Positions 2,600 to 53,825 of a DNA stretch of 64,000 nucleotides are shown one piece after another. Position numbers and translations under genes: made by a program. Numbering within the stretch: position 1 is the stretch's first letter; each line of letters begins with the position of its first letter. This stretch comes from Candidatus Binatia bacterium (GTDB lineage: Bacteria; Desulfobacterota; Binatia; DP-6): the NCBI GenBank assembly GCA_041496545.1, contig JBGQET010000007.1:5424-69423 (forward strand), in the 5' to 3' direction. The notes beneath the pieces were generated by a model. The model saw only the letters and a list, made by a program, of their open reading frames with translations, was not told the DNA's origin and ran no database searches.

Positions 2600-2716
2600 C
2601 GTGCGCAGGAAGCCCACCGGCGTTCGGTGGCGCGGGCCCGGGGCGGGTTCGGGTTCGCCGCGCCGGAGTTCGACGAGTACCCGTGGGTTTTCGACGCCCC
2701 GCGCCGCTACCAGAGC

Positions 2717-4375
2717 GTGCGGGTCTTCCGGCGGGGTGTGCTGCGCCGCCTCGTCGTCGACTGCACGCTCGCGCCGGCGGGCGGCGGCACCCGCGTCGAG
2801 TACGTGACGCGCGCCGAGCTGATCGGCGGTCCCGTCGGCGCCGTCGCGCGCTGGCAGTTTCGCCGCCGCGTCGGGCGCGGCCTGGTGGCGGTGCGCGCGC
2901 TGCTCGAAGCGCGCGCCGGCGGGAGCGACATCGCGTGGGTCTTCCGTTATCCGCGCGAAGACGAGGTTCGGGCGCGTGCCCGGCCGCTCGTCGACGCGCT
3001 GGTCGGCGCGCACCCCGCCGACGCGCCGCTCTACGCGCGACTCGTCGACACCATCGCCATCGCGCCCGACGCGGACGTCGCGCGCATGCGGCCCTACGAG
3101 TTGGCCGTGCGCTGGGGGCTCGCGCGCCGCGACGTGCTCGCCGCGTGCCTCCGTGCGACGAAGGGCGGGCTGCTCCGTCTCTCGTGGGACATCGTCTGCC
3201 CTTCGTGCGAGCAGCCGCCGGCGACCGCCACACGTCTCGCCGACGTGCCGACCGGCGGCCACTGCCCGATGTGCGACGTCGACTTCGCGGTCAGCTTCGA
3301 GCGCGGCGTCGAGGCGACGTTCGCGCCCTCGCCCGCGCTGCGCGACGCGGAGCGCCTCGTCTTCTGCCACGGCTCGCCGATGCGGACGCCGCACTGGGTG
3401 GCGCAGTTCCCGGTCGAGGGCGGTGCGGTGCGCACGATCGCCACCCAGCTGGGTGCCGGGCGCTACCGCGTGCAAGCCTCGGGCGCCGACGGCCGCGCCC
3501 TCTTCGACGTCGATCCCGACGACGGCGGCGCTCGCCTGGGCGTCACCATCCCGGGGCCCGCGGTGGGGACGCGGCCGGCCGTCGTGCTCGACACGCCCAT
3601 CGTGCGCGCCGGCGCGCTCGAGCTGGTGGTGCGGAACGACGACACCACGCCCCACCGCGTGCAGGTGGTCCACCGCGACTACGAGTCGCAGGCCGCCACG
3701 GCGGCCGACGTGACGGCGCTCGGCGTCTTCCGCGACCTCTTCGCCGAGGACGTGCTCAGCCCCGAGCAGCACGTCGGGGTCGGCCGCACGGTGATCCTCT
3801 TCACCGACCTCGTCGGCTCGACGGCGCTCTACGAGCGGGTCGGCGACGCGGCGGCGTACGGCCTCGTCCGCCGCCACTTCCGTCTCCTCTTCGACGCCGT
3901 GGAGCGTCATCGCGGCGCGGTCGTGAAGACGGTGGGCGACTGCGTGATGGCGTCGTTCGCGCGGCCGCTCGACGGCGCGCGCGCGGGACGGGCGGCGATC
4001 GAGGCGCTCGCGGGCTTGACCGACCGCGATGGGAACGCCCCGGGGTTGGCGCTCAGGGTCGGCGTGCACGTCGGGCCGTGCCTCGCCATCGAGGCCAACC
4101 GCGTCGCCGACTACTTCGGGCGGACGGTGAACCTCGCGGCGCGCGTCGAAGCGCAAGCCGGGCCGAACGAGATGGTGCTCTCGGCGAGCATGCGCGACGA
4201 CCCGGAGGTCGCGGCCTGGCTCGCCGCCGCGCCCGCGGACGGCGTCGCCGTCCGTGCCGACCGCTGCGTGGTGAAAGGGGTCGCGGGAGAGCTGGAGGTC
4301 GTGCGCGTGGGCGTTCCCGTCAGCCCGGCGGCGGGCGGAGGAGCGCGAACTCCGGATTCGCGTACGCGCGCGTGA
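2717..4375 (+). CDS. Class III adenylate/guanylate cyclase with an N-terminal uncharacterised domain
   Basis: The C-terminal cyclase homology domain is clear (ILFTDLVGSTALYE…TVGDCVMASF…RVGVHVGPC…FGRTVNLAARVE). GTG start candidates are at 2717 and 2738. It is divergent from the P450 gene. Confidence 0.8.
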   Translation: MRVFRRGVLRRLVVDCTLAPAGGGTRVEYVTRAELIGGPVGAVARWQFRRRVGRGLVAVRALLEARAGGSDIAWVFRYPREDEVRARARPLVDALVGAHPADAPLYARLVDTIAIAPDADVARMRPYELAVRWGLARRDVLAACLRATKGGLLRLSWDIVCPSCEQPPATATRLADVPTGGHCPMCDVDFAVSFERGVEATFAPSPALRDAERLVFCHGSPMRTPHWVAQFPVEGGAVRTIATQLGAGRYRVQASGADGRALFDVDPDDGGARLGVTIPGPAVGTRPAVVLDTPIVRAGALELVVRNDDTTPHRVQVVHRDYESQAATAADVTALGVFRDLFAEDVLSPEQHVGVGRTVILFTDLVGSTALYERVGDAAAYGLVRRHFRLLFDAVERHRGAVVKTVGDCVMASFARPLDGARAGRAAIEALAGLTDRDGNAPGLALRVGVHVGPCLAIEANRVADYFGRTVNLAARVEAQAGPNEMVLSASMRDDPEVAAWLAAAPADGVAVRADRCVVKGVAGELEVVRVGVPVSPAAGGGARTPDSRTRA

Positions 4376-5698
4376 AGCCGAGACGCTCGAGCGCCGCTGC
4401 ATCCTCGCGGTGCGCGAGCACGACGGGCGCGTGCGGGACGCGGTCCGGGGCGGCGGTCGAGCGCAGGTCCCGGTCGAGATAGAAGAGGCAAGCGGCGCGG
4501 AGGTTCGGGCTGTCGGTGCGGAAGCCTGCGAGCGGGCTCCGGTCGCCGGGGGCGAGCACCTCGAGGGCCGGACCGAGCGCTTTCAAGTGCGTTGCGGCGT
4601 GCGTGTGGACGCGGATGGGGAGCACGAGGAGCGCCAGCCCGAGCGCGGCGAACAAGCGCGTCGCGACCTGGGGCACGCGCGCGCGCCAGCCGTCGGGCAG
4701 GACGCGGTCGAGGCCGAGCGCGGTCAGGATGGCGGCGGGCGGGTAGAACTGGTGCAGGTAGCGCGCGCGGCGGCCCTGCGAGAGGTAGAGGAGTGCCAAG
4801 TACCCGCCCGCCCAGCAGAGCACGTAGAGGAGGTTGCGGTCGCGGGCGCGCGCCGCGCGCACGGCGGCGACGACGCCGACGGCGAGGAACGCGACCCACG
4901 GCCAGTCGTCCTTCACGAGGACGCTCAGGTACGACGCCGTCGGCCCGCGCCAGAGCCGTCCCGCGAGCCGGTCGACGACCTGGGTGTGGAAGTAGGTGTT
5001 CAGGAAGGGCTCCCCCCAGTGCACCACCTCGTAGACGTGCCAGGGCAGGCAGACCGCCGCGCCGAGCGCGACCGAGGCGAGAAAGCGCCAGGAGAGGAGG
5101 AGTCCGAGCCGTCGCTCGACGGCGCACCAGATGAGGAACAGGTAGGGGCCCGTCAGCCCGAAGACGCCCTTCGTCATGACCCCGAGACCCCACGCGACGC
5201 CGGCGAGCGCGAAGCCGCGCCCGCCCGCCGCCGCCCCGCGCACGTAGAGCCAGAGCGAGAGGAGGGTGAAGAACGTCACGCCCGAGTCGAGGCGGAAGGT
5301 GGCCGAGTTCCGCACGAAGCGTGGCGTGGTGGCGAGCACCAGCGCCGCGGTCAGCGCGAGCCGCTCGTCCACGAAGCGCCGCGCGAGCTGGAAGAGCACG
5401 ACGCAGGAGAGGACGCCGAAGAGCGCCGAGAAGAGCTTCGCCGCGAACACCGACGGGCCGAGGACGCGGTAGCTGGCGGCCGCGAGCCAGAACATGAGCG
5501 GGGGCTTGTTCCAGTAGTGCGTGTCGCCCAGCCAGAGGTTGAGCCAGTCCCCCGACCTGACGATGCCCTTCGCAACCGCGGCGTAGAGCACCTCGTCGCG
5601 GAAGAGGTCGCCCTCCCAGAGGCGCGCCATCATCGTGACCGCGGCGGCGAAGAGGACGAGCAGCAGGCCGCGGCGGCCGAGGGCGGGCTCGCTCACGG
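4320..5698 (-). CDS. Glycosyltransferase family 39 (ArnT/PMT-like, dolichyl- or undecaprenyl-phosphate sugar transferase)
   Basis: It is polytopic and shows GT39 features (…GDTHYWNKPPLMFWL…). A GTG start at 5698 overlaps the upstream cytochrome c stop by about 4 nt. Confidence 0.75.
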
Positions 5699-6556
5699 CG
5701 CGGAGAGGCTCGGCGCCCGGTACACCGGCGGGACGCGGAACACGTCGTGCGGATGGTCGCCGATGAAGCCGTCGAAGTCCTGCCCGAGCGTCTGCACGCC
5801 GGGGTCGTCGAGGAAGCGGCGGAGGGTGTCGTCGTCGCGGAAGGCGAACAGCGTGGTGAGGACGGTCTGCGGGCGGCGGCGGTCGACGAAGGTGTCGATG
5901 CCGAGGAGCCCGTTCCAGGTGAGGAAGCGGGGCCGGCCGGTGGCGGCGAACCACTGCTCGAAGTCGGCGAGCCGTCCCTCGCGCACGTCGTAGGTCTGGA
6001 CGAGGAAGCTCTTGGCCTCGCTGGGTGGCGGCGCGGGGAGGGCGGCGAGCGCCGGCGGGGTGGTGTGGACCGCGTGCGGGTTCGCGGGATCCACCTGCGC
6101 GGTGAGGTACGCGACCAGGTCGGCGAGCTGCGCCAGCGTCATGTCCGGGTAGGCGGGCATCACCGAGTGGCCGTCGGGGTCGAGGTAGCCCGGGCCGGCG
6201 ATCAGCACGGCGTCGGGGTTCAGGATCGACTCGACGAAGTACTCGGGCGGGTGATGGCTCCCCATGCCGGAGAGATCGGGCCCCGCACCCGCGGTGGGCG
6301 AGCCCTTCTCGCCCGCGATCGCGTGACACGCGGGGCAGCCGAGGTCGACGAACGCCCGTCGCCCGGCGACCGGGTCGCCCGGCGGCGGCGTCAGGCGCCA
6401 GCCGGGCGGCACGCCGCCGGCGCGGTGGAGCGCGTCCATCGAGATGCGGACGCCGGGTTCGCCGCGGCGGACCGCGCGCCCGCCGCCACCCCGCTCACCG
6501 CACGCGCCCGCGAGCAGCGCCGCGAGCCCGAGGGCGACCACCGACCTCCTGGGCAC
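5693..6556 (-). CDS. Mono-heme cytochrome c lipoprotein
   Basis: It has a lipoprotein signal peptide (LAALLAGACG) and a single CPACH heme-binding motif. Confidence 0.75.
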   Translation of the reverse strand: MPRRSVVALGLAALLAGACGERGGGGRAVRRGEPGVRISMDALHRAGGVPPGWRLTPPPGDPVAGRRAFVDLGCPACHAIAGEKGSPTAGAGPDLSGMGSHHPPEYFVESILNPDAVLIAGPGYLDPDGHSVMPAYPDMTLAQLADLVAYLTAQVDPANPHAVHTTPPALAALPAPPPSEAKSFLVQTYDVREGRLADFEQWFAATGRPRFLTWNGLLGIDTFVDRRRPQTVLTTLFAFRDDDTLRRFLDDPGVQTLGQDFDGFIGDHPHDVFRVPPVYRAPSLSAP

Positions 6557-7856
6557 CGAGGCCCTCTGTCACAAGCGGTCGGGCGTGCGCAAGCGACGAG
6601 GCGTCGCAACTCGAGCCGCTCGCTCCGGGGAGCGCGTCGAAGTAGAAGCCGGTGAGCGCGCACGCCTCGTCGTCCGGTGTCGCGCCGCCGACCGCGTTGG
6701 CGACGACGCACGCACCCGTGAAGCTGCGGCCTGGATAGGCCGGGTCGGCGGACGGGCAGGCGAGCGGATTCTGCACCTCGGTGCACGGCCTGGCCGGGCC
6801 CCCGCCGGGCAGACCGCGCGGCGTTCCGGGCGGCTCTCCCGCGCGCTCCTCGCAGCCGAGGCGCGTCGGGGTCGACACCCCGTTCTCGGTCCAGCACTCG
6901 TAGCGGAGCATCTGCCCGGCGCGCAGCAGCAAGGGCGGCTGGAGCGACCGCGTCCCCGGGTCGGTGTAGTCGACGGCGCCGAAGAAGTGCCGCCGCCCCG
7001 GCTCGAACGGGTTCGCCACCGCGTCGCCGCCGGCGAGGACGTTTCCACCCGCATCGACGACGTCGACGCCGAGGAAGCGTCCCCGCTCGTGCATGCGTCC
7101 GGTGATCGCGAGCACGCACACGTCCCCGGCGGGGCCGCCCCCGACGCCCGGTTCCCACACGTCGCGTACGGGTGGCTGGTCCGGGAGCAACGCGTTCAGC
7201 GCGGCCGTGGAGGCTTCCGTCGAGCGCAGCGCCGACGGCGGGACCAGCAGACCCAGCTCCGCCGACGCGGCCTCGAGCGGCAGCGCGATGCGCGGGGACC
7301 GATTGCGCGGCGCGCGCCGCAGCGTCGCCGACGCCGACCCGACCCGCGGCCGGTCCGCCCCGTTCACCCAGTTGATGTCGAGGAGGAAGCCGATGCCGCC
7401 CGGGCCCTCACCCGGGGCGCGCGGCGTCGGAGCGAGACGGAGCGCGACCCCCGGGGGCAGGGCCCGCCGGGCGCGGACGGCGAAGCCGCTCGCCACGAGT
7501 TGGCGACGATCGCGGTCGGACGGACCCAGAGCGAGGCAGGCGCGGCTCGACACCACTCGCCCCGCGTCGGCCGCGAACTCCGCGAACCGCTCGCCTCGGT
7601 ACAGGTAGACGAGGAAGTGCGCGATGCCGAAGGCGCCGCGTGCCCCCTGGACGCGCAGGTCCCAGCTTTCGAGATCGAAGGGCGTCGTCGCGCGCAGGGG
7701 GACGAAGACGCAGAGCTCCGGCCTGGTCCCCGCCGCGACGCTGACGTGCGGGAAGCGGAGCTTGACGGTGCGCGGCTCGCGCGCCGGCGCCGGGCGGCTG
7801 GCGAGCACGAGCAGCGCGACGAAGAAGCCGGCTCCACGCAGCGGCGTGCGGATCAT
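6495..7856 (-). CDS. Secreted PHM/DBH-like protein, a paralogue of the 52641..53825 protein with the copper ligands lost
   Basis: It has a signal peptide and aligns along its length with the 52641 protein (ELCVF/EVCEAL; LGCEE/LGCEAT; …DDEAC/…DDDMC). The HH, H, HxH and M positions are mostly substituted. Confidence 0.65.
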   Translation of the reverse strand: MIRTPLRGAGFFVALLVLASRPAPAREPRTVKLRFPHVSVAAGTRPELCVFVPLRATTPFDLESWDLRVQGARGAFGIAHFLVYLYRGERFAEFAADAGRVVSSRACLALGPSDRDRRQLVASGFAVRARRALPPGVALRLAPTPRAPGEGPGGIGFLLDINWVNGADRPRVGSASATLRRAPRNRSPRIALPLEAASAELGLLVPPSALRSTEASTAALNALLPDQPPVRDVWEPGVGGGPAGDVCVLAITGRMHERGRFLGVDVVDAGGNVLAGGDAVANPFEPGRRHFFGAVDYTDPGTRSLQPPLLLRAGQMLRYECWTENGVSTPTRLGCEERAGEPPGTPRGLPGGGPARPCTEVQNPLACPSADPAYPGRSFTGACVVANAVGGATPDDEACALTGFYFDALPGASGSSCDASSLAHARPLVTEGLGAQEVGGRPRARGAARGRVR

Positions 7857-7875
7857 CGGCCCCAGCGAGCAGCGA

Positions 7876-8925
7876 TCACGGGAAGGCGAGGCGCTTGCCG
7901 TGAGCCTTCACGCGAAAGTTGTCCGTCGAGCGCCCGAGCAGGCCGCCCGCGGCGTAGCTCGTCTGCACCGCGACGGGCGTGCCGGCGGGCGCGGGCAGCA
8001 CCGGGGCACGGAGCTTCACGGCGAGGAGGTAGTTGTCGATCTGGAAGCGACGGCGCACGAACCGCACGCCCATCGACAGGAGCCGATCGTCGCTGCTCGC
8101 CACGAACAGACGGCGGCCGCGCTGGCGGAGCCCGCCCAGCACCGCGCCGGCGCCGATCGTGACCCCGCCGGTGCTGGCGCGGAAGATCGCCGGCTTGCCG
8201 GGAAAGTCGAGGACTTCGTCGGGGTTCGGCGCGAAGAGCACCCTCATGGTCAAGGTTTTCGAGGTCACGCCCGCCGACACGACGACGGAGTCGGTGCTGC
8301 GACGGAACTGGTCCTTGTCGGGGACGGGTGTGGCCTGGCAGCTCGCGCGCACCACCAGCACGCCGCCGAGCGGCGACGGGAGCCCGCTCTGCTGGACGAC
8401 GCCGACGAGCGTGTAGCGGCCGTTGGCGTCCCGCGGCGAGCCCTCGAGGACGAGACCCGGCACCGCCGTGAGCCCCGTGGTGAGCGTCATCGGTAGGGTG
8501 AGCGCCGCGCCGCCGACCGTGAAGCCGAGCGGGAGGTCGGGGACGATGAACTCGCCGGTGCTGCCGCTGCGCGCGCCGGTGCTGCGCAAGAGCGCCACGA
8601 AGAAGCTCGGCAGCTCGAGCATGCTCGCGGTCCCGCCGGCGACGAACGGGCGCGCCGCGTCGGACTGCAGCGTGAACTGCGCGGTCTGATCCTGCATGTC
8701 GTAGGTGGTGTGCACGCCGTCGGGCGCGTTGGAGGGCGGGGCGGTCGCCGCGACGCCGCTGGCCGGGGCGTCGACCTCGAGGGGGTCGAAGGCGCACGTG
8801 CTGGGGAGCACGGGGACGTTGTGCGCCCCGGCCGCGCGTGCCGAGAGGAGCGCGGCCAGGACGAGGATCGAGCGCCGGAGCGCCATGATGGAGGTGAAGC
8901 TAGAAGCGCGCCGCGTACGACGCAA
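7876..8925 (-). CDS. Secreted hypothetical protein
   Basis: A signal peptide (MALRRSILVLAALLSARAAGA) is present from the alternative start at 8886. The gene sits first in the minus-strand operon 8925 to 4320. Confidence 0.6.
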   Translation of the reverse strand: MRRTRRASSFTSIMALRRSILVLAALLSARAAGAHNVPVLPSTCAFDPLEVDAPASGVAATAPPSNAPDGVHTTYDMQDQTAQFTLQSDAARPFVAGGTASMLELPSFFVALLRSTGARSGSTGEFIVPDLPLGFTVGGAALTLPMTLTTGLTAVPGLVLEGSPRDANGRYTLVGVVQQSGLPSPLGGVLVVRASCQATPVPDKDQFRRSTDSVVVSAGVTSKTLTMRVLFAPNPDEVLDFPGKPAIFRASTGGVTIGAGAVLGGLRQRGRRLFVASSDDRLLSMGVRFVRRRFQIDNYLLAVKLRAPVLPAPAGTPVAVQTSYAAGGLLGRSTDNFRVKAHGKRLAFP

Positions 8926-8981
8926 GCCCTCATGGGCGCGGCTTGAGAGCGCGCCGCCTTCGGGCTATTGACGGGCCGTCC

Positions 8982-9359
8982 ATGCGTTCCGCCGTGCTGC
9001 GCCGTCTCGGCGCCTCGCTGCTCGCCGTCGCCGTGCTGGCGGCGGGGCTCGCTGGCGAGACCCGGACGTGCCGGCAGTGCGCGCCGAGCTGCCCCATGCA
9101 CGCCAAGAAGCCCGGCTGTCACCACGGCGCGCGACCGTCGTGCCACCGCGAGGGCGGGCCGATGGGATTCCGCGCGGCGTGCGGGCACCGCGCCGATCCC
9201 GCGCTCCAGGCCGTCGCCATGCGGGCGCTCTTCTGCTCTCCCGCTGCCTCGGGTCGCGCCGTCGTCGCGCGACGCGTCGCTGTGCCCGAGCGCGAGCCGG
9301 ATCTCGGCGTCGCCCCCGAGCCGCCCACCGAGCCGCCGCGCGCCCCCGCCGTCGGTTGA
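8982..9359 (+). CDS. Small Cys/His/Met-rich exported protein, putative metal-binding
   Basis: A signal-like N-terminus is followed by CRQCAPSCPMH…GCHHG…SCH…ACGH. It lies directly upstream of the copCD cluster. Confidence 0.4.
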   Translation: MRSAVLRRLGASLLAVAVLAAGLAGETRTCRQCAPSCPMHAKKPGCHHGARPSCHREGGPMGFRAACGHRADPALQAVAMRALFCSPAASGRAVVARRVAVPEREPDLGVAPEPPTEPPRAPAVG

Positions 9360-9407
9360 GCCGACCGACTCCCGGATTGCCGCGCGCGCGCGGCGGAAGG
9401 GGCGCTC

Positions 9408-10334
9408 ATGCGAAATCGGATGGGCGCCGCGGGTGTGCTCGTCGTCTGCCTCGGGGCAGCGACGGCGCACGCTCACGGCGTCGTTGGAGAGCGATCGTTC
9501 ATCGAGCCATTCATCACCGAGGACGTGAACCCGAAGAACGAGTTCGTGATCGCACGACCGGAGTTCGATCATTCCCGCGACGGGAAGGAATTCTCGCTCG
9601 GCTTCGGCCTGGAGAAGAAGATATCGGATCGCTTCAGCCTCACGCTCGACTCGTCGTGGAACGACATCACCCCGAAGGCGGCGGACGAGCCGCACGCCAG
9701 CGGCTTCGGCAACCTCGGCCTCACCCTCAAGTACGCGTTCTTCATCAACCCGGCGCACGAGGCCATCGCCTCGTTCGCGATCGAGTCGACGGCGCCGACC
9801 GGCACCGCCGACGTCGGCGCGGAGCAGCGCGCGTCGTTCAAGCCCTTCGTGCTCTACGGCAAGGGCGCCGGCGACCTGCCGTCGTGCCTCAAGTACCTCC
9901 GCCCGCTCGCCGTGCAGGGCGACGCGGGCTTCGAGATCTCCCTCGACAACGACCGCACCACGACCCTCGTGCACAACGTCGCGATCCAGTACAGCATCCC
10001 GTACCTCCAGTCCGTCGTGCGCGACTTCGGCCTGCGCTGGCCGCTCAACAAACTGCTCCCCGTCGCCGAGTTCAACTTCGAGCACGGCGTGAACGGCGCG
10101 GAGCACGCCGTCCACAAGGTGACCACTACCCCGGGCATCGTCTACATGGACCGCTGGGTCGAGATCGGGATCGCGGGACGCTTCCCGCTCAACACCTCCG
10201 CGCACCGCGACCTCGACTGGGGCGTGATCGGCATCATCGACCTCTTCATCGACGACATCTTCCCGTGGTCCCGGTGGCAACCGATCGGTGGCATGGGGCT
10301 GCCGACGCCACCCGCCAACGAGCCAAAGTCGTGA
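9408..10334 (+). CDS. Secreted or outer-membrane protein, possibly an outer-membrane channel of the phenol-degradation (MetA-pathway) family
   Basis: It has a GGAAGGGG RBS and a signal peptide. Its stop overlaps the copC GTG start (GTGA). Confidence 0.6.
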   Translation: MRNRMGAAGVLVVCLGAATAHAHGVVGERSFIEPFITEDVNPKNEFVIARPEFDHSRDGKEFSLGFGLEKKISDRFSLTLDSSWNDITPKAADEPHASGFGNLGLTLKYAFFINPAHEAIASFAIESTAPTGTADVGAEQRASFKPFVLYGKGAGDLPSCLKYLRPLAVQGDAGFEISLDNDRTTTLVHNVAIQYSIPYLQSVVRDFGLRWPLNKLLPVAEFNFEHGVNGAEHAVHKVTTTPGIVYMDRWVEIGIAGRFPLNTSAHRDLDWGVIGIIDLFIDDIFPWSRWQPIGGMGLPTPPANEPKS

Positions 10335-10693
10335 AGCGCGGCGTCGCGGCGTTCGGTTTTCTCGTGGGTCTGCTCGCGCTCCGGCCGCCCCCGGCCGGAG
10401 CGCACGCCTTCCTCGACCACGCGGAGCCGCGGGTGGGGTCGAGCGTCGCGGCGCCTCCCACCCTGACGCTCGTCTTCACCGAGCCGGTCGAAGCCGGCTT
10501 CTCTCACCTCGCCCTCCGTGCGCCGGACGGCAAGCCGGTCGAGACGCCGGCGCTCGAGCAGCCGGCGCCGAACACGCTGCGTGTTGCGCTGCCGGCGCTC
10601 GCGCCGGGCGAGTACACCGTCGAGTGGGGCGTGGTCTCGGTCGACACGCATCCGACCGACGGCCGCTTCAACTTCTCCGTGAAGAAACCGTGA
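10331..10693 (+). CDS. copC: Copper resistance protein CopC (periplasmic copper chaperone)
   Basis: It has a signal peptide followed by the mature N-terminus HAFLDHAEP and a CopC-like beta-sandwich sequence. It is translationally coupled to both neighbours. Confidence 0.75.
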   Translation: MKRGVAAFGFLVGLLALRPPPAGAHAFLDHAEPRVGSSVAAPPTLTLVFTEPVEAGFSHLALRAPDGKPVETPALEQPAPNTLRVALPALAPGEYTVEWGVVSVDTHPTDGRFNFSVKKP

Positions 10694-11514
10694 ACGCGGC
10701 CTTCACGGTCACCGGCTGGCTCGACCTGGTGGCGACGGTGCTCCTCGCCGGCGGCCTCGTGTTCGCCGCGGCGGTCGCGACGCCCGCGGAAGCCGGCCGG
10801 CGGACGATGCGCGTGGCTGCCGACGCCCTCGCGCCGGTCCTCGTCGCGAGCTTCGCGCTGGTCGGCATCCGGATGCACGAGGTGGCGGGTGGCGAGGGCG
10901 TCGGATTCGTCGGCCGGCTCCTCGCCATGCACTGGGGGCGCTACTGGATCGGCCGCGCCGCCGGCCTCGTCGTGCTGCGCGTCGGGCTCGCGGCGGCGCG
11001 CCCGCGCTGGACCCTCCTCGCCGTCTTCGCCGTGCCGTGGCTCCTCCTGCGGAGCTCCCAGGGGCATGCGGGGGCGCACGGCACGGTGCCCGCGCTCGTC
11101 GACTGGGCGCACCTCGCGGGCGCCGCGGCGTGGCTCGGCGGTCTCGCGCAGATGGCGCTCCTCGCCGACGACGTGCCGGCCGCGGCGCGCCTGCGGCGCC
11201 TCGCGACGGCGGCGCTGGCGCTCGTCGTGCCCGCCGGCGTGTACGCGGCCTTCCTGCACGTCCCGAGCCTCGACCGGCTGCTGCACACGCCCTACGGGCA
11301 GACGCTCCTCGCGAAGCTCGCCCTGGTCGCCGTCCTCTTGACGCTCGGGGCCGCGAACCACTTCCGTCACGTGCCGGCGCTGGTCGCGGGGGACGCCGTT
11401 GCCGCCGTGCGGCTCCGGCGCACGGTGCGGATGGAGCTGGTGCTCGCCGCCGTGATCCTGCTGCTCAGCGCGCTCCTCGGCGTGCTGCCGATGCCGCACG
11501 AGCCGCCCTCGTGA
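10690..11514 (+). CDS. copD: Copper resistance protein CopD (inner-membrane copper transporter)
   Basis: It has eight predicted transmembrane helices with CopD family character. The GTG start overlaps the copC stop. Confidence 0.75.
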   Translation: MNAAFTVTGWLDLVATVLLAGGLVFAAAVATPAEAGRRTMRVAADALAPVLVASFALVGIRMHEVAGGEGVGFVGRLLAMHWGRYWIGRAAGLVVLRVGLAAARPRWTLLAVFAVPWLLLRSSQGHAGAHGTVPALVDWAHLAGAAAWLGGLAQMALLADDVPAAARLRRLATAALALVVPAGVYAAFLHVPSLDRLLHTPYGQTLLAKLALVAVLLTLGAANHFRHVPALVAGDAVAAVRLRRTVRMELVLAAVILLLSALLGVLPMPHEPPS

Positions 11515-11789
11515 GGCGACGCGCGCTTGCCGTCGTCCTGCTCGCGCTCGTCGCCTGCGGGCGCGACGTCGAGTACGTCGGCGCGGGCGAGGTGGTGTCC
11601 GTCGACGAGCCGCGGCTGCACGTGACGATCCGGCACGAGGACATTCCGGGGCTCATGGGCGCGATGACGATGCGCTTCGCGGTCGGCTCGCCCGACGTCC
11701 TGGCCGGCGTCGAGCCGGGGGCGCACGTCCGCTTCCGGTTGCGGCCCGCGGGCGGCGACTACGTCGTGACGCGGGTCGAGGCCCGCTGA
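11511..11789 (+). CDS. CusF-like periplasmic copper-binding lipoprotein
   Basis: It has a lipobox (LALVACG) and an H…M.M.F motif (IRHEDIPGLMGAMTMRF). The GTG start overlaps the copD stop. Confidence 0.65.
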   Translation: MRRRALAVVLLALVACGRDVEYVGAGEVVSVDEPRLHVTIRHEDIPGLMGAMTMRFAVGSPDVLAGVEPGAHVRFRLRPAGGDYVVTRVEAR

Positions 11790-11790
11790 G

Positions 11791-12492
11791 TCAGCGGCGG
11801 CGCAGCGAGTCGATGTACGCCACCAGGTCCCAGAGCTGCGGCGGCTCGAGGGCGTCGGCGTACGACGGCATGGGCGTGCCGTCGAGGCCGGTCACCAGCG
11901 AGCGGTAGACGTCGGCGGGCGCGCCGCCGTTCTTGAAGCGGGTGGGGAGGCGGAGGTCGGCGGGCAGGATGCGGAGCCCCGTCTCGTCCTTGAGCTGCTT
12001 CGCCGAGCCGCCGTCGCCGCGGCCGCGGTCGCCGTGGCAGGACGGGCAGCCGGCGCTCTCGTAGAGGTCGCGGCCGCGCGACGCCGCCGCGGCGTCGAGC
12101 GGCGGCGCCTCGGGGAGGGCGATGGGCGTGGGCGTCGCGCTCGCGAAGCCGGGGTAGAAGCGCTTCACGGCGGTGATCGCGAGGCGGCGCTCGCCCGCCG
12201 TGAGCCCGATGAAGGACGGCATGTAGCCCGGGATGCCGCGCTCGAGGGTGCGCAGGATATCCGCGTCGGTCGGCAATTGCCCGCTCGGCGTCGAGCGGAG
12301 CTTGAAGCGGCCGCGGGTGAAGTCGCGCGGGCGCGGCGACAGGTACTTGTTGATCGAGAAGTACGCGGGCCCGTCGCCGCGCCCGTCCTTGCCGTGGCAC
12401 CACGCGCAGGCGTGGTTGTAGACGGCGGTCGCGTCGTCGGCCGCGACGGCCGGGGCGGCGAGCGCGAGGACGAGGAGGACGGCCGTTCGCAT
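11791..12492 (-). CDS. Di-heme cytochrome c
   Basis: It has a signal peptide and two CxxCH motifs (CAWCH, CPSCH). Confidence 0.8.
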   Translation of the reverse strand: MRTAVLLVLALAAPAVAADDATAVYNHACAWCHGKDGRGDGPAYFSINKYLSPRPRDFTRGRFKLRSTPSGQLPTDADILRTLERGIPGYMPSFIGLTAGERRLAITAVKRFYPGFASATPTPIALPEAPPLDAAAASRGRDLYESAGCPSCHGDRGRGDGGSAKQLKDETGLRILPADLRLPTRFKNGGAPADVYRSLVTGLDGTPMPSYADALEPPQLWDLVAYIDSLRRR

Positions 12493-12494
12493 CG

Positions 12495-14123
12495 TCAGAG
12501 CGCGAAGTCGAAGCCGAGGAAGAGACCGTTCCGCCAGTTGCCGAAGGGGTGGCTGCCGCCCGGCGTGAGGTTGACGCTGTCGCGCAGCGAGAGGCTCAGG
12601 AGGGCGGGGATCGGGACCCTAGCCAGATTGTCGCCCTCGAAGACGTACCAGCGCATCTGGAGGTGCAGCACCTGCGACTGCCGCGGGCCCGGCTCGAAGA
12701 CGACGTCGCTCTTGAAGCCGCCGGCGCTCATCCAGTCGTAGCGCACCGACGGCACGAGCGAGTGCGTGAGGCGGTAGTCCACCTCCGCGGTGAGCCCGTC
12801 GGCGCGTCGCTTGAAGCGCCCGGCGAGGCGCGACGGGACGTTGAAGACCTGGTCGTGCATGTAGGCGCCGTAGGTGTCCCACGGGCCGCGGCGCAGGTTC
12901 CAGCCGACGCCCTGGCGGGAGACATCGAGGTCGCGTTGGTTCGTGATCGTGCCGACGCCGAGCGGCGGTGGCGGGCGGTGCTGCGTGACGGGGCCGCCGA
13001 AGTCGCCGAGCGGGATCGACGGCAGCGGCGCCGGCGAGAGGTAGAACACGCGGTACGCCTCCCAGCCGTAGTTGCCGAGCACGGAGACCGAGCCGGTCAG
13101 GCCGTCGCGGTCGCCGAAGTCCCAGCGCAGCATGCCGTACGGCACGGCGGTGTGCAGCCCGTCGGTGAACTCGGGTGCCGCGCCGGTCGTCGTGCCGAGC
13201 TGGTAGAGGAGGTGGGAGGCGAAGAGGCGGCCGTGGAGGTCGAGGCCGGGCGCGGCCTCGGCGTGGTAGAGGGTCGGCTCGGTGGCGAGGAGCGTGTGGT
13301 CGCCGCGCTTGAAGATGCCGAAGAACTTGGCGCCGAAGGCGTAGGGGTTGAGCGGCATGCGGAGGAGGAAGCCGGACTCCGAGGTATCGGCCGGCACGTC
13401 GTGGAAGAGCTGGCGGTCGACGGCGTAGGAGAAGTTGGTCGAGGGGTCGATGCGACCGAACATGATCATGGGGCCGTGACCGACGAGGCCGTCGCCCATG
13501 GTCGCCATGCCGTGCCCGCCGTGGTCCATGTCTCCCATGTCGTGGCCCATCTGCTCGTGGTCCATGTGGGCCATGTCGTGTCCGCCGTGGCCGTGGAGGC
13601 CGAGCAGCATGGGGACGTCGACCATGACGAACGCCTTCTGCATGCCGCCCGTGTTGCTGTTCACGAAGTCGCCGCGCTTGTTGATGTCGGTCTCGTGGAC
13701 GGTGTGCTCGAGCTCGATGAAGAGGCTCGTCGAGGGCGTGAGCGGACCCGCGATGTAGACGCTCGTGTGCTCGGGGACGGCGAAGCCGCCCCGCGAGCCC
13801 GGCGCGTCGTCGAACTGCGAGCGCTCGAACCACTCGCCCCGCGTCCAGATCGCCATGCCCTTGGTGAGCGCGTCCTTCCACGTCGACGGGAACGGCGTCC
13901 ACATCGTGCCCGGCGGCTTGAAGCCGTTCATGTGGAACTCCTCGCCGTAGGCGTTGAGGCGCGGAACGGCGGAGTGGCAGACCCCGCAGGCGAGGTTGTA
14001 GCGACGGGCGAAGGCGGGTAGCGCCGCCGCCGAACGCGCCGTGACGAGGAGAGCGACAAGAGCGAGCAGGCGGCGCGCGAGCATCGGTCGCGCCCGTATA
14101 CCGGCCCGTGCCCCCGGGCTCAA
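12495..14123 (-). CDS. Secreted CxxCH-containing protein with a Met/His-rich copper-binding-like region and a beta-barrel-like C-terminus
   Basis: It has a signal peptide, a CGVCH motif and the tract HGHGGHDMAHMDHEQMGHDMGDMDHGGHGM. The C-terminus is rich in aromatic/Gly strands. Confidence 0.7.
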   Translation of the reverse strand: MSPGARAGIRARPMLARRLLALVALLVTARSAAALPAFARRYNLACGVCHSAVPRLNAYGEEFHMNGFKPPGTMWTPFPSTWKDALTKGMAIWTRGEWFERSQFDDAPGSRGGFAVPEHTSVYIAGPLTPSTSLFIELEHTVHETDINKRGDFVNSNTGGMQKAFVMVDVPMLLGLHGHGGHDMAHMDHEQMGHDMGDMDHGGHGMATMGDGLVGHGPMIMFGRIDPSTNFSYAVDRQLFHDVPADTSESGFLLRMPLNPYAFGAKFFGIFKRGDHTLLATEPTLYHAEAAPGLDLHGRLFASHLLYQLGTTTGAAPEFTDGLHTAVPYGMLRWDFGDRDGLTGSVSVLGNYGWEAYRVFYLSPAPLPSIPLGDFGGPVTQHRPPPPLGVGTITNQRDLDVSRQGVGWNLRRGPWDTYGAYMHDQVFNVPSRLAGRFKRRADGLTAEVDYRLTHSLVPSVRYDWMSAGGFKSDVVFEPGPRQSQVLHLQMRWYVFEGDNLARVPIPALLSLSLRDSVNLTPGGSHPFGNWRNGLFLGFDFAL

Positions 14124-52640: not shown

Positions 52641-53825
52641 ATGCGACGCATCGTGATCGGGCTCGTGCTCGCCTGTTTGGCGGCGCCCGCCATCGCCCAC
52701 GAGCGGGTCGTGCACCTGAAGGTCGGCCCGTTCTGGGTCCCCGCCAAGCGCGACCGCGAGGTGTGCGAGGCGCTGCGCATCCCGCGCGTGGCCGGGATGG
52801 ACGTCGTCAGCTTCGAAGCCCGCTCGCGCACCGGCAACGGCGTCGGCTCGCACCACTTCGTCGCCTACGCCTACCGGGGCGCGAACAGCGCCGCCTTCCC
52901 GAAGGGCATCGTCGACGACCCGGGCTGCAACGGCTTCGGACCCTCCGACTTCTTCACCACCCGCGGCTTCATCGCCGGCTCGGGCGGCGAGTACCAGCGC
53001 GGGCGCTGGCTCATCACGCGCGGCGGCTTCCCGGACGGGCTCGCGCTGCGCATGTCCGGCCCCGCCGACGCGCCGCGCGACACCTACGTCGTCCTCAACT
53101 CGCACTACTTCAACGACAACCCGACCCGGCCGGGCCGCGCGCTCGTGCGTCTCACGCTGCGTCTCGCGCCCGCCGACCCGCGAAAGCGCGTGCTCCGCAT
53201 GCTGACCGAGGTGACCGCCAGCCGCGACATCTTCGTCCCCCCGGGCGGGACGGCGACCGTCGAGGCGACCTGGCAGGCCGACGGGCGGCCGAACCCGGGC
53301 ACCGAGGGCGCCGCCAACCCGGCCCGCGACGTCTGCCTTCTCTACCTCGGCGCCCACATGCACAAGCGCGGCCGGCGCTTCCTCCTCACCTACGAGGAGG
53401 ACGGCAAGCCGCCCCAGGAGATCCTCGACGTGCGCGACTATCTCCATCCCGGCATCGCGTACTTCGGCCGCGGCCGCTTGCTGCACGCGTACACGGCGGA
53501 GAACGGGCACCCGCGGTTCCGCTACGCTTGCACGCACGAGAACGGCGCCGAGGGCGTGCCCCTCAAGCTCGGCTGCGAAGCGACGCCCGGCGTCGTTCCC
53601 GGGCTCAAGTGGACGGACGCCGAGGCGCGCGGCATCTCGCCGCTCGACGCCCACGCGCGCCCGTGCGGCGCGGGCGGCGTGAACTGCGCCGGCGAGCCCT
53701 GCGTCGCGGCCAACCTCGTCTTCGGCCCGCTCTCCGACGACGACATGTGCGTGCTGCCCGGCGCACTCTACGACCCGCTGCCCGGCGTGCCGCCCGAGCA
53801 AGCGTGCAACCCCTTCGGCTTCTGA
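52641..53825 (+). CDS. Secreted copper type II ascorbate-dependent monooxygenase homologue (PHM/DBH-like) with all ligand positions intact
   Basis: It has a signal peptide. The copper-ligand motifs align with PHM (see the corresponding finding). Confidence 0.75.
   Translation: MRRIVIGLVLACLAAPAIAHERVVHLKVGPFWVPAKRDREVCEALRIPRVAGMDVVSFEARSRTGNGVGSHHFVAYAYRGANSAAFPKGIVDDPGCNGFGPSDFFTTRGFIAGSGGEYQRGRWLITRGGFPDGLALRMSGPADAPRDTYVVLNSHYFNDNPTRPGRALVRLTLRLAPADPRKRVLRMLTEVTASRDIFVPPGGTATVEATWQADGRPNPGTEGAANPARDVCLLYLGAHMHKRGRRFLLTYEEDGKPPQEILDVRDYLHPGIAYFGRGRLLHAYTAENGHPRFRYACTHENGAEGVPLKLGCEATPGVVPGLKWTDAEARGISPLDAHARPCGAGGVNCAGEPCVAANLVFGPLSDDDMCVLPGALYDPLPGVPPEQACNPFGF

Follow-up and report, generated by a model that had tools for sequence, protein, structure and literature searches.

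A PHM-fold protein with degenerate copper sites in a copper-associated gene cluster of Binatia, and its genus-specific link to an ArnT-like glycosyltransferase

Introduction

PHM (peptidylglycine alpha-hydroxylating monooxygenase) and DBH (dopamine beta-hydroxylase) are textbook eukaryotic copper enzymes, built on a two-domain beta-sandwich catalytic core. In PHM, H107, H108 and H172 constitute the CuH site and H242, H244 and M314 the CuM site, the methionine of the latter being essential. Another copper-binding device is found in CopC, YcnI and lytic polysaccharide monooxygenases (LPMOs), in which a histidine residue occupies the first position of the mature chain. In the bacterial envelope, proteins and lipid A are modified by glycosyltransferases of the PMT and ArnT families, the latter (ArnT being the lipid A 4-amino-4-deoxy-L-arabinose transferase) corresponding to family GT83 in CAZy. 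Here, we analyze four genes, A, B, C and D, located in a 64,000-nucleotide stretch of DNA (the window; contig JBGQET010000007.1) from a Candidatus Binatia bacterium. They encode an exported protein whose mature chain is predicted to start with a histidine (A), a PHM-fold protein which has lost most of its copper ligands (B), a lipoprotein cytochrome c (C) and an ArnT-like glycosyltransferase (D). A literature search on bacterial PHM-like proteins and on Binatia and copper retrieved no relevant study.

With moderate confidence, we read A, B and C as a copper-associated periplasmic module which has been joined locally to an ArnT-like envelope-modifying enzyme. Judging from sequence comparison, the cluster appears to be a lineage-specific join of two older gene modules, A with B and C with D, inside a copper-homeostasis island. 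Gene neighborhoods support repeated linkage of B (together with A and another exported protein, F) to cytochrome C and copper-homeostasis genes, and indicate that the link to D is genus-specific. In the following, G numbers designate genomes (G000, the source genome; G001, a genome of the same genus), L and P numbers loci, and C15, C51, C71, C80 and C123 sequences of the source genome; E, like F, is an associated protein. The four genes are:

7876-8886, minus strand: gene A, 336 residues, secreted, with a signal peptide ending AAGA; the longest open reading frame starts from TTG 8925
6495-7856, minus strand: gene B, 453 residues, exported PHM/DBH-fold protein with a signal peptide and degenerate copper sites
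5693-6556, minus strand: gene C, 287-residue lipoprotein, a monoheme class I cytochrome c with a C-terminal domain of about 125 residues
4320-5696, minus strand: gene D, 458 residues, ArnT-like membrane glycosyltransferase (GT-C, PMT_2 family) whose C-terminal soluble domain is shortened

The G+C content of the window is about 74%, a composition which generates long spurious open reading frames (ORFs) in every frame. Periodicity of the third-position GC content (GC3) delineates four consecutive coding frames on the minus strand, at 4320-5696, 5693-6556, 6495-7856 and 7876-8886/8925, and bears out the four co-directional ORFs reported in a first-pass annotation of this DNA. The gene identities proposed there were also recovered, C through PF00034, D through PMT_2 (PF13231) and B through its PHM fold, A and B both carrying signal peptides.

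A PHM fold with degenerate copper sites

Gene B has no sequence match in Pfam (E <= 0.01), NCBIfam or PDB, and the Cu2_monooxygen and Cu2_monoox_C models do not match it; its identity thus came only from structure prediction. In the AlphaFold model (pLDDT 85.6), B is predicted to adopt the two-domain beta-sandwich of the PHM/DBH catalytic core, and the top 24 Foldseek matches in PDB are all PHM and DBH structures (best E 4.9e-10, ranging to 3e-8, probability 1.0, TM-score of about 0.6 on the target). Profile alignments to PHM chains, weak but consistent, place the HH motif of the family on VHHMLLFG and D(D/E)MC on SDEMC of PHM.

When the ligand positions are compared with those of PHM, A79-H80 stands for H107-H108, N162 for H172, R254-x-H256 for H242-x-H244 and A398 for M314. 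B hence retains two of the six copper ligands, the equivalents of H108 and H244, and has lost the other four: H80 alone represents the CuH site, and the CuM site is reduced to R254, H256 and A398. With this loss, B cannot run the canonical two-copper chemistry, and the term pseudo-PHM used in the first-pass annotation is apt. The same pattern (x-H / N,E,D / variable / H / V,A,I,T,R) was found in all 13 degenerate loci and in 85 of 87 database homologs, four of these 85 having an arginine at the H244 position. The H108 equivalent is kept in every aligned homolog and the CuM methionine is retained nowhere in the subfamily. The latter, conserved at 45-67% identity, contains ten invariant cysteine residues and a specific 15-residue insert, NPFEPGRxH (NPFEPGRRH in the window), with a conserved histidine, His290. 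As far as these alignments indicate, the subfamily is confined to one Binatia family and the loss of the four copper ligands is fixed in it.

B, an exported and disulfide-rich protein, thus shares with PHM and DBH (PDB 1PHM, 1SDW, 6AY0 and 4ZEL) the two-domain beta-sandwich fold and the regions of the VHHMLLFG- and SDEMC-type motifs. It differs from them by the replacement of H107, H172, H242 and M314, the 15-residue insert with its new conserved histidine, extra cysteine-rich loops and the lack of a Pfam Cu2_monooxygen match, as well as by being bacterial, periplasmic and partnered by genes A and F.

The source genome also encodes four stand-alone paralogs of B which keep the full pattern SHHF / NSH(W/Y) / HMH / D-D-M-C, one of them in the window:

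52641-53825, plus strand: B paralog with the full PHM ligand set (SHHF, NSHY, HMH, DDMC) and neither A nor F as a neighbor
C51:19100-20308, C80:6210-7427 and C123:9748-10956: further canonical B paralogs, each with all six ligands

Altogether, nine canonical loci exhibit the HHH-HH-M arrangement. The four paralogs of the source genome belong to the same family as B, with which they share 30-38% identity, a cysteine framework and a DREVC-type N-terminal strand, whereas the ligands HH, H, HxH and M are all in place, the insert is absent and neither A nor F is ever adjacent to them. These paralogs, which have no Pfam match either, look like genuine bacterial PHM-type copper monooxygenases.

Gene A and the B-A-F unit

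Gene A has no sequence match in Pfam, NCBIfam or PDB. Its model (pLDDT 85.5) comprises two beta-sandwich domains for which Foldseek returned no significant fold match (TM-score of about 0.2). After the predicted cleavage of the signal peptide, the mature chain of 315 residues starts with His22; an invariant cysteine, Cys31, which pairs with Cys183, and the motif PDxDQF are found in it. While a word-index homology search gave only one relative of A, a full HMMER search recovered the family, which amounts to 129 cluster representatives among 1.84 billion proteins. A is present in 20 of the 25 genomes of its Binatia family and in none of 16 genomes outside it, consistent with a small family confined to this lineage.

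In nearly all full-length members with a complete N-terminus, A-x-A is followed by a histidine and then by x-x-P-x-x-P-x-x-C, and in the family alignment this histidine of mature position 1 is the only invariant one. A thereby resembles CopC, YcnI (a mono-histidine brace protein) and LPMOs, in that its predicted mature chain opens with a histidine right after an A-x-A site. It departs from them by having two domains, no sequence or fold similarity to them and no second conserved histidine, the invariant residues D190 and D192 being candidates only for a second metal ligand. A is located in a copper island and adjoins CopC, whose mature chain likewise opens with a histidine. Since the first mature residue is an invariant histidine, and since CopC and E in the island also open with one, it is reasonable to infer, by analogy, that A binds copper.

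A second A paralog with an N-terminal histidine (44% identity) lies at C71:20440-21465, within locus L044 (C71:13477-21465). It adjoins an FG-GAP lipoprotein gene of a family also found beside C in other genera (C71:19200-20390), and a PMT_2 GT-C gene lies about 1.3 kb away, the cluster also including an RND pump and a further GT-C-like gene. This proximity to a PMT_2 gene is a weak hint, not a pattern.

In relatives, the conserved unit is B, then A, then F, the last encoding an exported protein of about 200 residues, whose family conserves the motifs FHG, GDDD and, at the C-terminus, WPW and has no Pfam match at E <= 0.1:

C15:23523-24029 (source genome), L013:9245-9841, L014:6404-6973 and L020:13112-13723: F genes, F coming third in B-A-F units

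A or F is adjacent to the degenerate B in 12 of 13 loci and to canonical B in none of nine, which corresponds to a hypergeometric probability of about 2e-5 (calculated by hand and uncorrected for phylogeny). On a metagenome contig, the genes downstream of a B-A unit include those of a NicO transporter and of a protein with a lysyl-oxidase domain, which also represents a copper enzyme family (L050:8074-9438).

The only F gene of the source genome stands alone on C15, next to spermine-synthase-like, TetR and RoxA-like genes. Since complete B-A-F units are bordered by these genes in other genomes, A and B seem to have been transferred to the copper island, with F left in place.

Cytochrome C

C contains the heme motif C74-P-A-C-H78 and matches PF00034 with 41.9 bits (cut-off 21.3), as expected for a class I cytochrome c. 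An SVM133PAY motif lies in the region where the distal methionine axial ligand is expected, judging by position in the sequence. The heme domain matches SoxX/TsdA-type cytochromes at 1.6e-10 and 2e-5 (PDB 7ZS0 and 1H31), with which it shares CxxCH and the downstream MP motif. C differs from these in being a lipoprotein with an unclassified C-terminal domain of about 125 residues and in scoring under the SoxX cut-off. Searched alone, the C-terminal domain has no Pfam match at E <= 0.1; it is labeled HmoA/ABM-like in one JGI record.

At least 399 homologs of C were found, mostly in Binatia records. C occurs near B in several arrangements: it overlaps B in the window, lies past F in convergent orientation in G016, G021 and G009, and is divergent in L050. 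At the P0071 locus, C is on the same strand as copCD and just downstream, apparently in that operon. That the linkage between B and C is kept through rearrangement suggests a functional tie. In other genera, an FG-GAP-repeat lipoprotein gene comes after C, and a sulfate ABC transporter operon lies ahead of it in divergent orientation (L034:8205-9470; L037:8381-9733).

The copper island

Upstream of A, and divergent from it, lies a copper operon:

8982-11789, plus strand: divergent copper operon comprising the following five genes
8982-9359, plus strand: small exported Cys/His-rich ORF heading the copCD operon
9408-10334, plus strand: E, first large gene of the copCD operon, without Pfam match; its mature N-terminus is a histidine (AHA|HGVVGERSFIEPF)
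10331-10693, plus strand: CopC, by sequence and by the PF04234 label of the orthologous gene in a related locus
10690-11514, plus strand: CopD, by Pfam and NCBIfam
11511-11789, plus strand: CusF, by Pfam

The small ORF is probably a real gene, as it is found at the same position, with 35-45% identity, in L029 and G001. E is kept beside CopC in relatives (68-72% identity). The surroundings of the cluster in the window also include genes for a diheme cytochrome, a YHS cyclase, cusCBA and a P-type ATPase. Beyond the source genome, copCD or cusF adjoin B in L013, L020, L023 and L029 and at the P0071 and P0023 loci.

On the minus strand at 11791-13931, a gene for a 478-residue protein without Pfam match is paired with that of a diheme cytochrome c. 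The pair is conserved in G016 and G001 (76-87% identity), where the longer ORF opens with a CxxCH motif.

Gene junctions and origin of the cluster

Three sites are relevant to how the cluster was assembled and may be expressed:

8887-8981: divergent intergenic region of 95 nt, bounded by A and by the small Cys/His-rich ORF at the head of the copCD operon
6495-6575, minus strand: non-conserved C-terminal tail of B, about 27 residues, which yields the 62-nt overlap with C
5693-5696, minus strand: GTGA overlap of the C stop (TGA, 5695-5693) with the D start (GTG, 5696-5694)

The first-pass annotation had proposed a four-gene periplasmic operon with nested overlaps, and strand and spacing agree with this proposal: the genes share one strand and are separated by a 19-nt gap (A-B) or overlap by 62 nt (B-C) and 4 nt (C-D). 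B stops at 6495 and C was taken to start at GTG 6556, the only start giving a proper PROSITE-type lipoprotein signal (MPRRSVVALGLAALLAGAC), and the two genes consequently overlap at 6495-6556. From GTG 6541, the overlap would be 47 nt, both values being in line with the 45-60 nt announced. The overlap between C and D is likewise real, although it covers 5693-5696 and not 5693-5698. The same GTGA is present in G001, and the arrangement is of the type typically seen with translational coupling. Four-base overlaps are ordinary in bacterial operons, and the packing of A to D is therefore, by itself, not beyond expectation. Conservation of gene order was not recovered: in relatives, where the order is B, A, F, the A-B-C-D succession is not found, and C-D alone is kept, within the genus.

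Co-transcription of A to D can be proposed from gene spacing only. In a consensus scan of the cluster, promoter-like sites were absent, and the two weak terminator-like hairpins detected are close to the number of 1.2 which chance would give. The 95-nt region at 8887-8981, in which the scan found no sigma-70 consensus, is presumed to be a bidirectional promoter region from which the cluster would probably be transcribed, divergently from the copC-copD-cusF operon.

The nested overlap between B and C turned out to be a by-product of the tail of B and no conserved design. Homologs of B stop about 8-11 residues past the last cysteine, whereas B runs 36 residues past it, with residues 428-453 modeled at pLDDT <50. 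If B ended at the usual place of its homologs, a spacer of about 15 nt would precede C. As the tail is non-conserved and predicted to be disordered, the overlap is best explained as a junction artifact of the rearrangement which placed A-B ahead of C-D. The idea that a frameshift is hidden here, with B and the cytochrome fused, was rejected, the tail being non-conserved and the genes separate in relatives.

The GT-C glycosyltransferase D

D matches PF13231 (PMT_2; 6e-23, 82.2 bits for a cut-off of 26.1) and PF02366 (PMT; 2e-11, 44.2 bits for a cut-off of 22.7). It aligns with residues 55-392 of ArnT from Cupriavidus (PDB 5EZM, E 1e-17), its RDE motif falling on D55-E56 of ArnT. D accordingly combines Pfam scores above cut-off with the acidic motif of the first periplasmic loop, as do ArnT and the bacterial PMT-family GT-C enzymes. 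D is smaller than ArnT by about 100 residues, its C-terminal domain being reduced; its gene belongs to no arn operon and is coupled to that of a cytochrome c. The first-pass assignment to GT39 is thus correct as to the PMT_2 GT-C family and approximate as a label: the closest solved relative is ArnT, for which the equivalog cut-off is missed (NF009784, 120.8 bits versus 567). This score and the absent arn context led us to reject D as a true ArnT. At its 3' end, D overlaps by 56 nt (4320-4375) with a convergent DUF5939/adenylate-cyclase gene (plus strand, 2627-4375).

C and D are paired, through an identical GTGA, in G000 and G001, both genomes of the genus, and nowhere else. In G001, C-D is directly divergent to the cop operon, with neither A nor B upstream, and A lies elsewhere in the island. 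D orthologs with 47-50% identity, in G002 and G003, are found in unrelated gene contexts, and no GT-C neighbor was found at any of the approximately 20 B loci outside the source genome. The functional coupling of a glycosyltransferase to a copper-enzyme-like protein, central to the first-pass annotation, is for these reasons unsupported by comparative genomics, while the gene identities, the common direction, both overlaps and the link of B to the cytochrome stand.

Proposed function and alternatives

In the reading we favor, the copper-associated A/B/C module with a local link to D, the cluster would fall into two modules. The first would consist of B, a periplasmic PHM/DBH-fold protein, and A, its usual neighbor. 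The second would comprise C, anchored in the membrane, and D, a putative polyprenyl-phosphate-sugar transferase whose translation start would be coupled to the C stop. Under copper stress, A may take up periplasmic copper at its N-terminal histidine, with B serving as a non-catalytic or re-purposed PHM-fold partner which would bind copper or a ligand and might contact A. Located on the outer side of the inner membrane, C would donate electrons to the A-B system or accept them from it, and D would add a sugar to an envelope lipid or protein, a link restricted to this genus.

Several observations weigh against this proposal. A has neither a fold match to a known copper protein nor a second conserved histidine, and the case for copper binding comprises one residue and its context. 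B might still bind metal via H80, H256 and His290 of the insert. A and B are also separable, G001 having A and no B ortholog, and in G016, G021 and G011 A lies kilobases off or on other contigs. The usual order is B-A-F, while the window has A before B, with F elsewhere (C15). Finally, copper genes are missing from the surroundings of many B-A-F loci (L014-L019, L046-L048), and C is common in Binatia, where it is often located beside sulfate-transporter and FG-GAP genes instead.

The first alternative is that B is still an active copper oxygenase, with a site rebuilt from H80, H256 and His290, possibly together with the N-terminal histidine of A, and with C as a dedicated electron donor. The invariance of the H108 equivalent, the near invariance of that of H244 (four arginine exceptions), the insert with its conserved histidine, the strong conservation of the subfamily and the recurrence of C by B in many arrangements all fit such an enzyme. 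However, none of the subfamily members keeps H107, H172 or M314, and H242 is replaced in B and variable across the subfamily. The methionine on which PHM depends is never retained, and the two remaining histidines belong to different copper sites, located about 11 Å apart in PHM. We consequently regard an active B as unlikely.

A related and more speculative proposal, which we consider doubtful, is that B-A-F, often with cytochrome C, represents an undescribed periplasmic copper system of Binatia, in which a PHM-fold protein without copper sites of its own is associated with a separate partner bearing an N-terminal histidine. The two would form either a split or re-invented copper oxygenase, with a histidine-brace-type center and a c-type cytochrome as donor, or an enzyme-derived pair sensing or sequestering copper.

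A further possibility is that the four genes are mere neighbors, brought together by rearrangement in a plastic copper island, with overlaps that are junction accidents and no common function beyond possible co-transcription. Gene order differs in every genus examined, the island was reshuffled between G000 and G001, the tail of B which creates the overlap is non-conserved and disordered, and F was left at an apparent ancestral site on C15. Yet, B remains close to C and to copCD/cusF in at least five arrangements, a pattern that speaks for linkage being under selection, and A, B and F are strongly linked, the presence or absence of A and B tracking each other across genomes. In light of this, we hold mere neighborhood to be rather improbable.

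Least probable of all is a single pathway in which the glycosylation of periplasmic substrates (A, B, C or lipid A) by D would be intrinsic to the B/C copper/redox system: although it could draw on the tight co-directional packing, the C-D GTGA coupling conserved in G001, the second A paralog near another PMT_2 gene beside an RND pump and the known activity of PMT/ArnT families on envelope proteins and lipid A, D stands beside C within one genus only, its G002 and G003 orthologs are among unrelated genes, none of the other B loci has a GT-C neighbor, and C-D in G001 lacks A and B upstream.

The source genome allows a natural comparison between four paralogs with full ligand sets and one long-degenerate, highly conserved subfamily. 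The link to the glycosyltransferase, local to one genus, probably matters less. Establishing what the degenerate B and its partner A do would show how a copper-enzyme fold can be re-used, and the pair could add a component to bacterial periplasmic copper handling.

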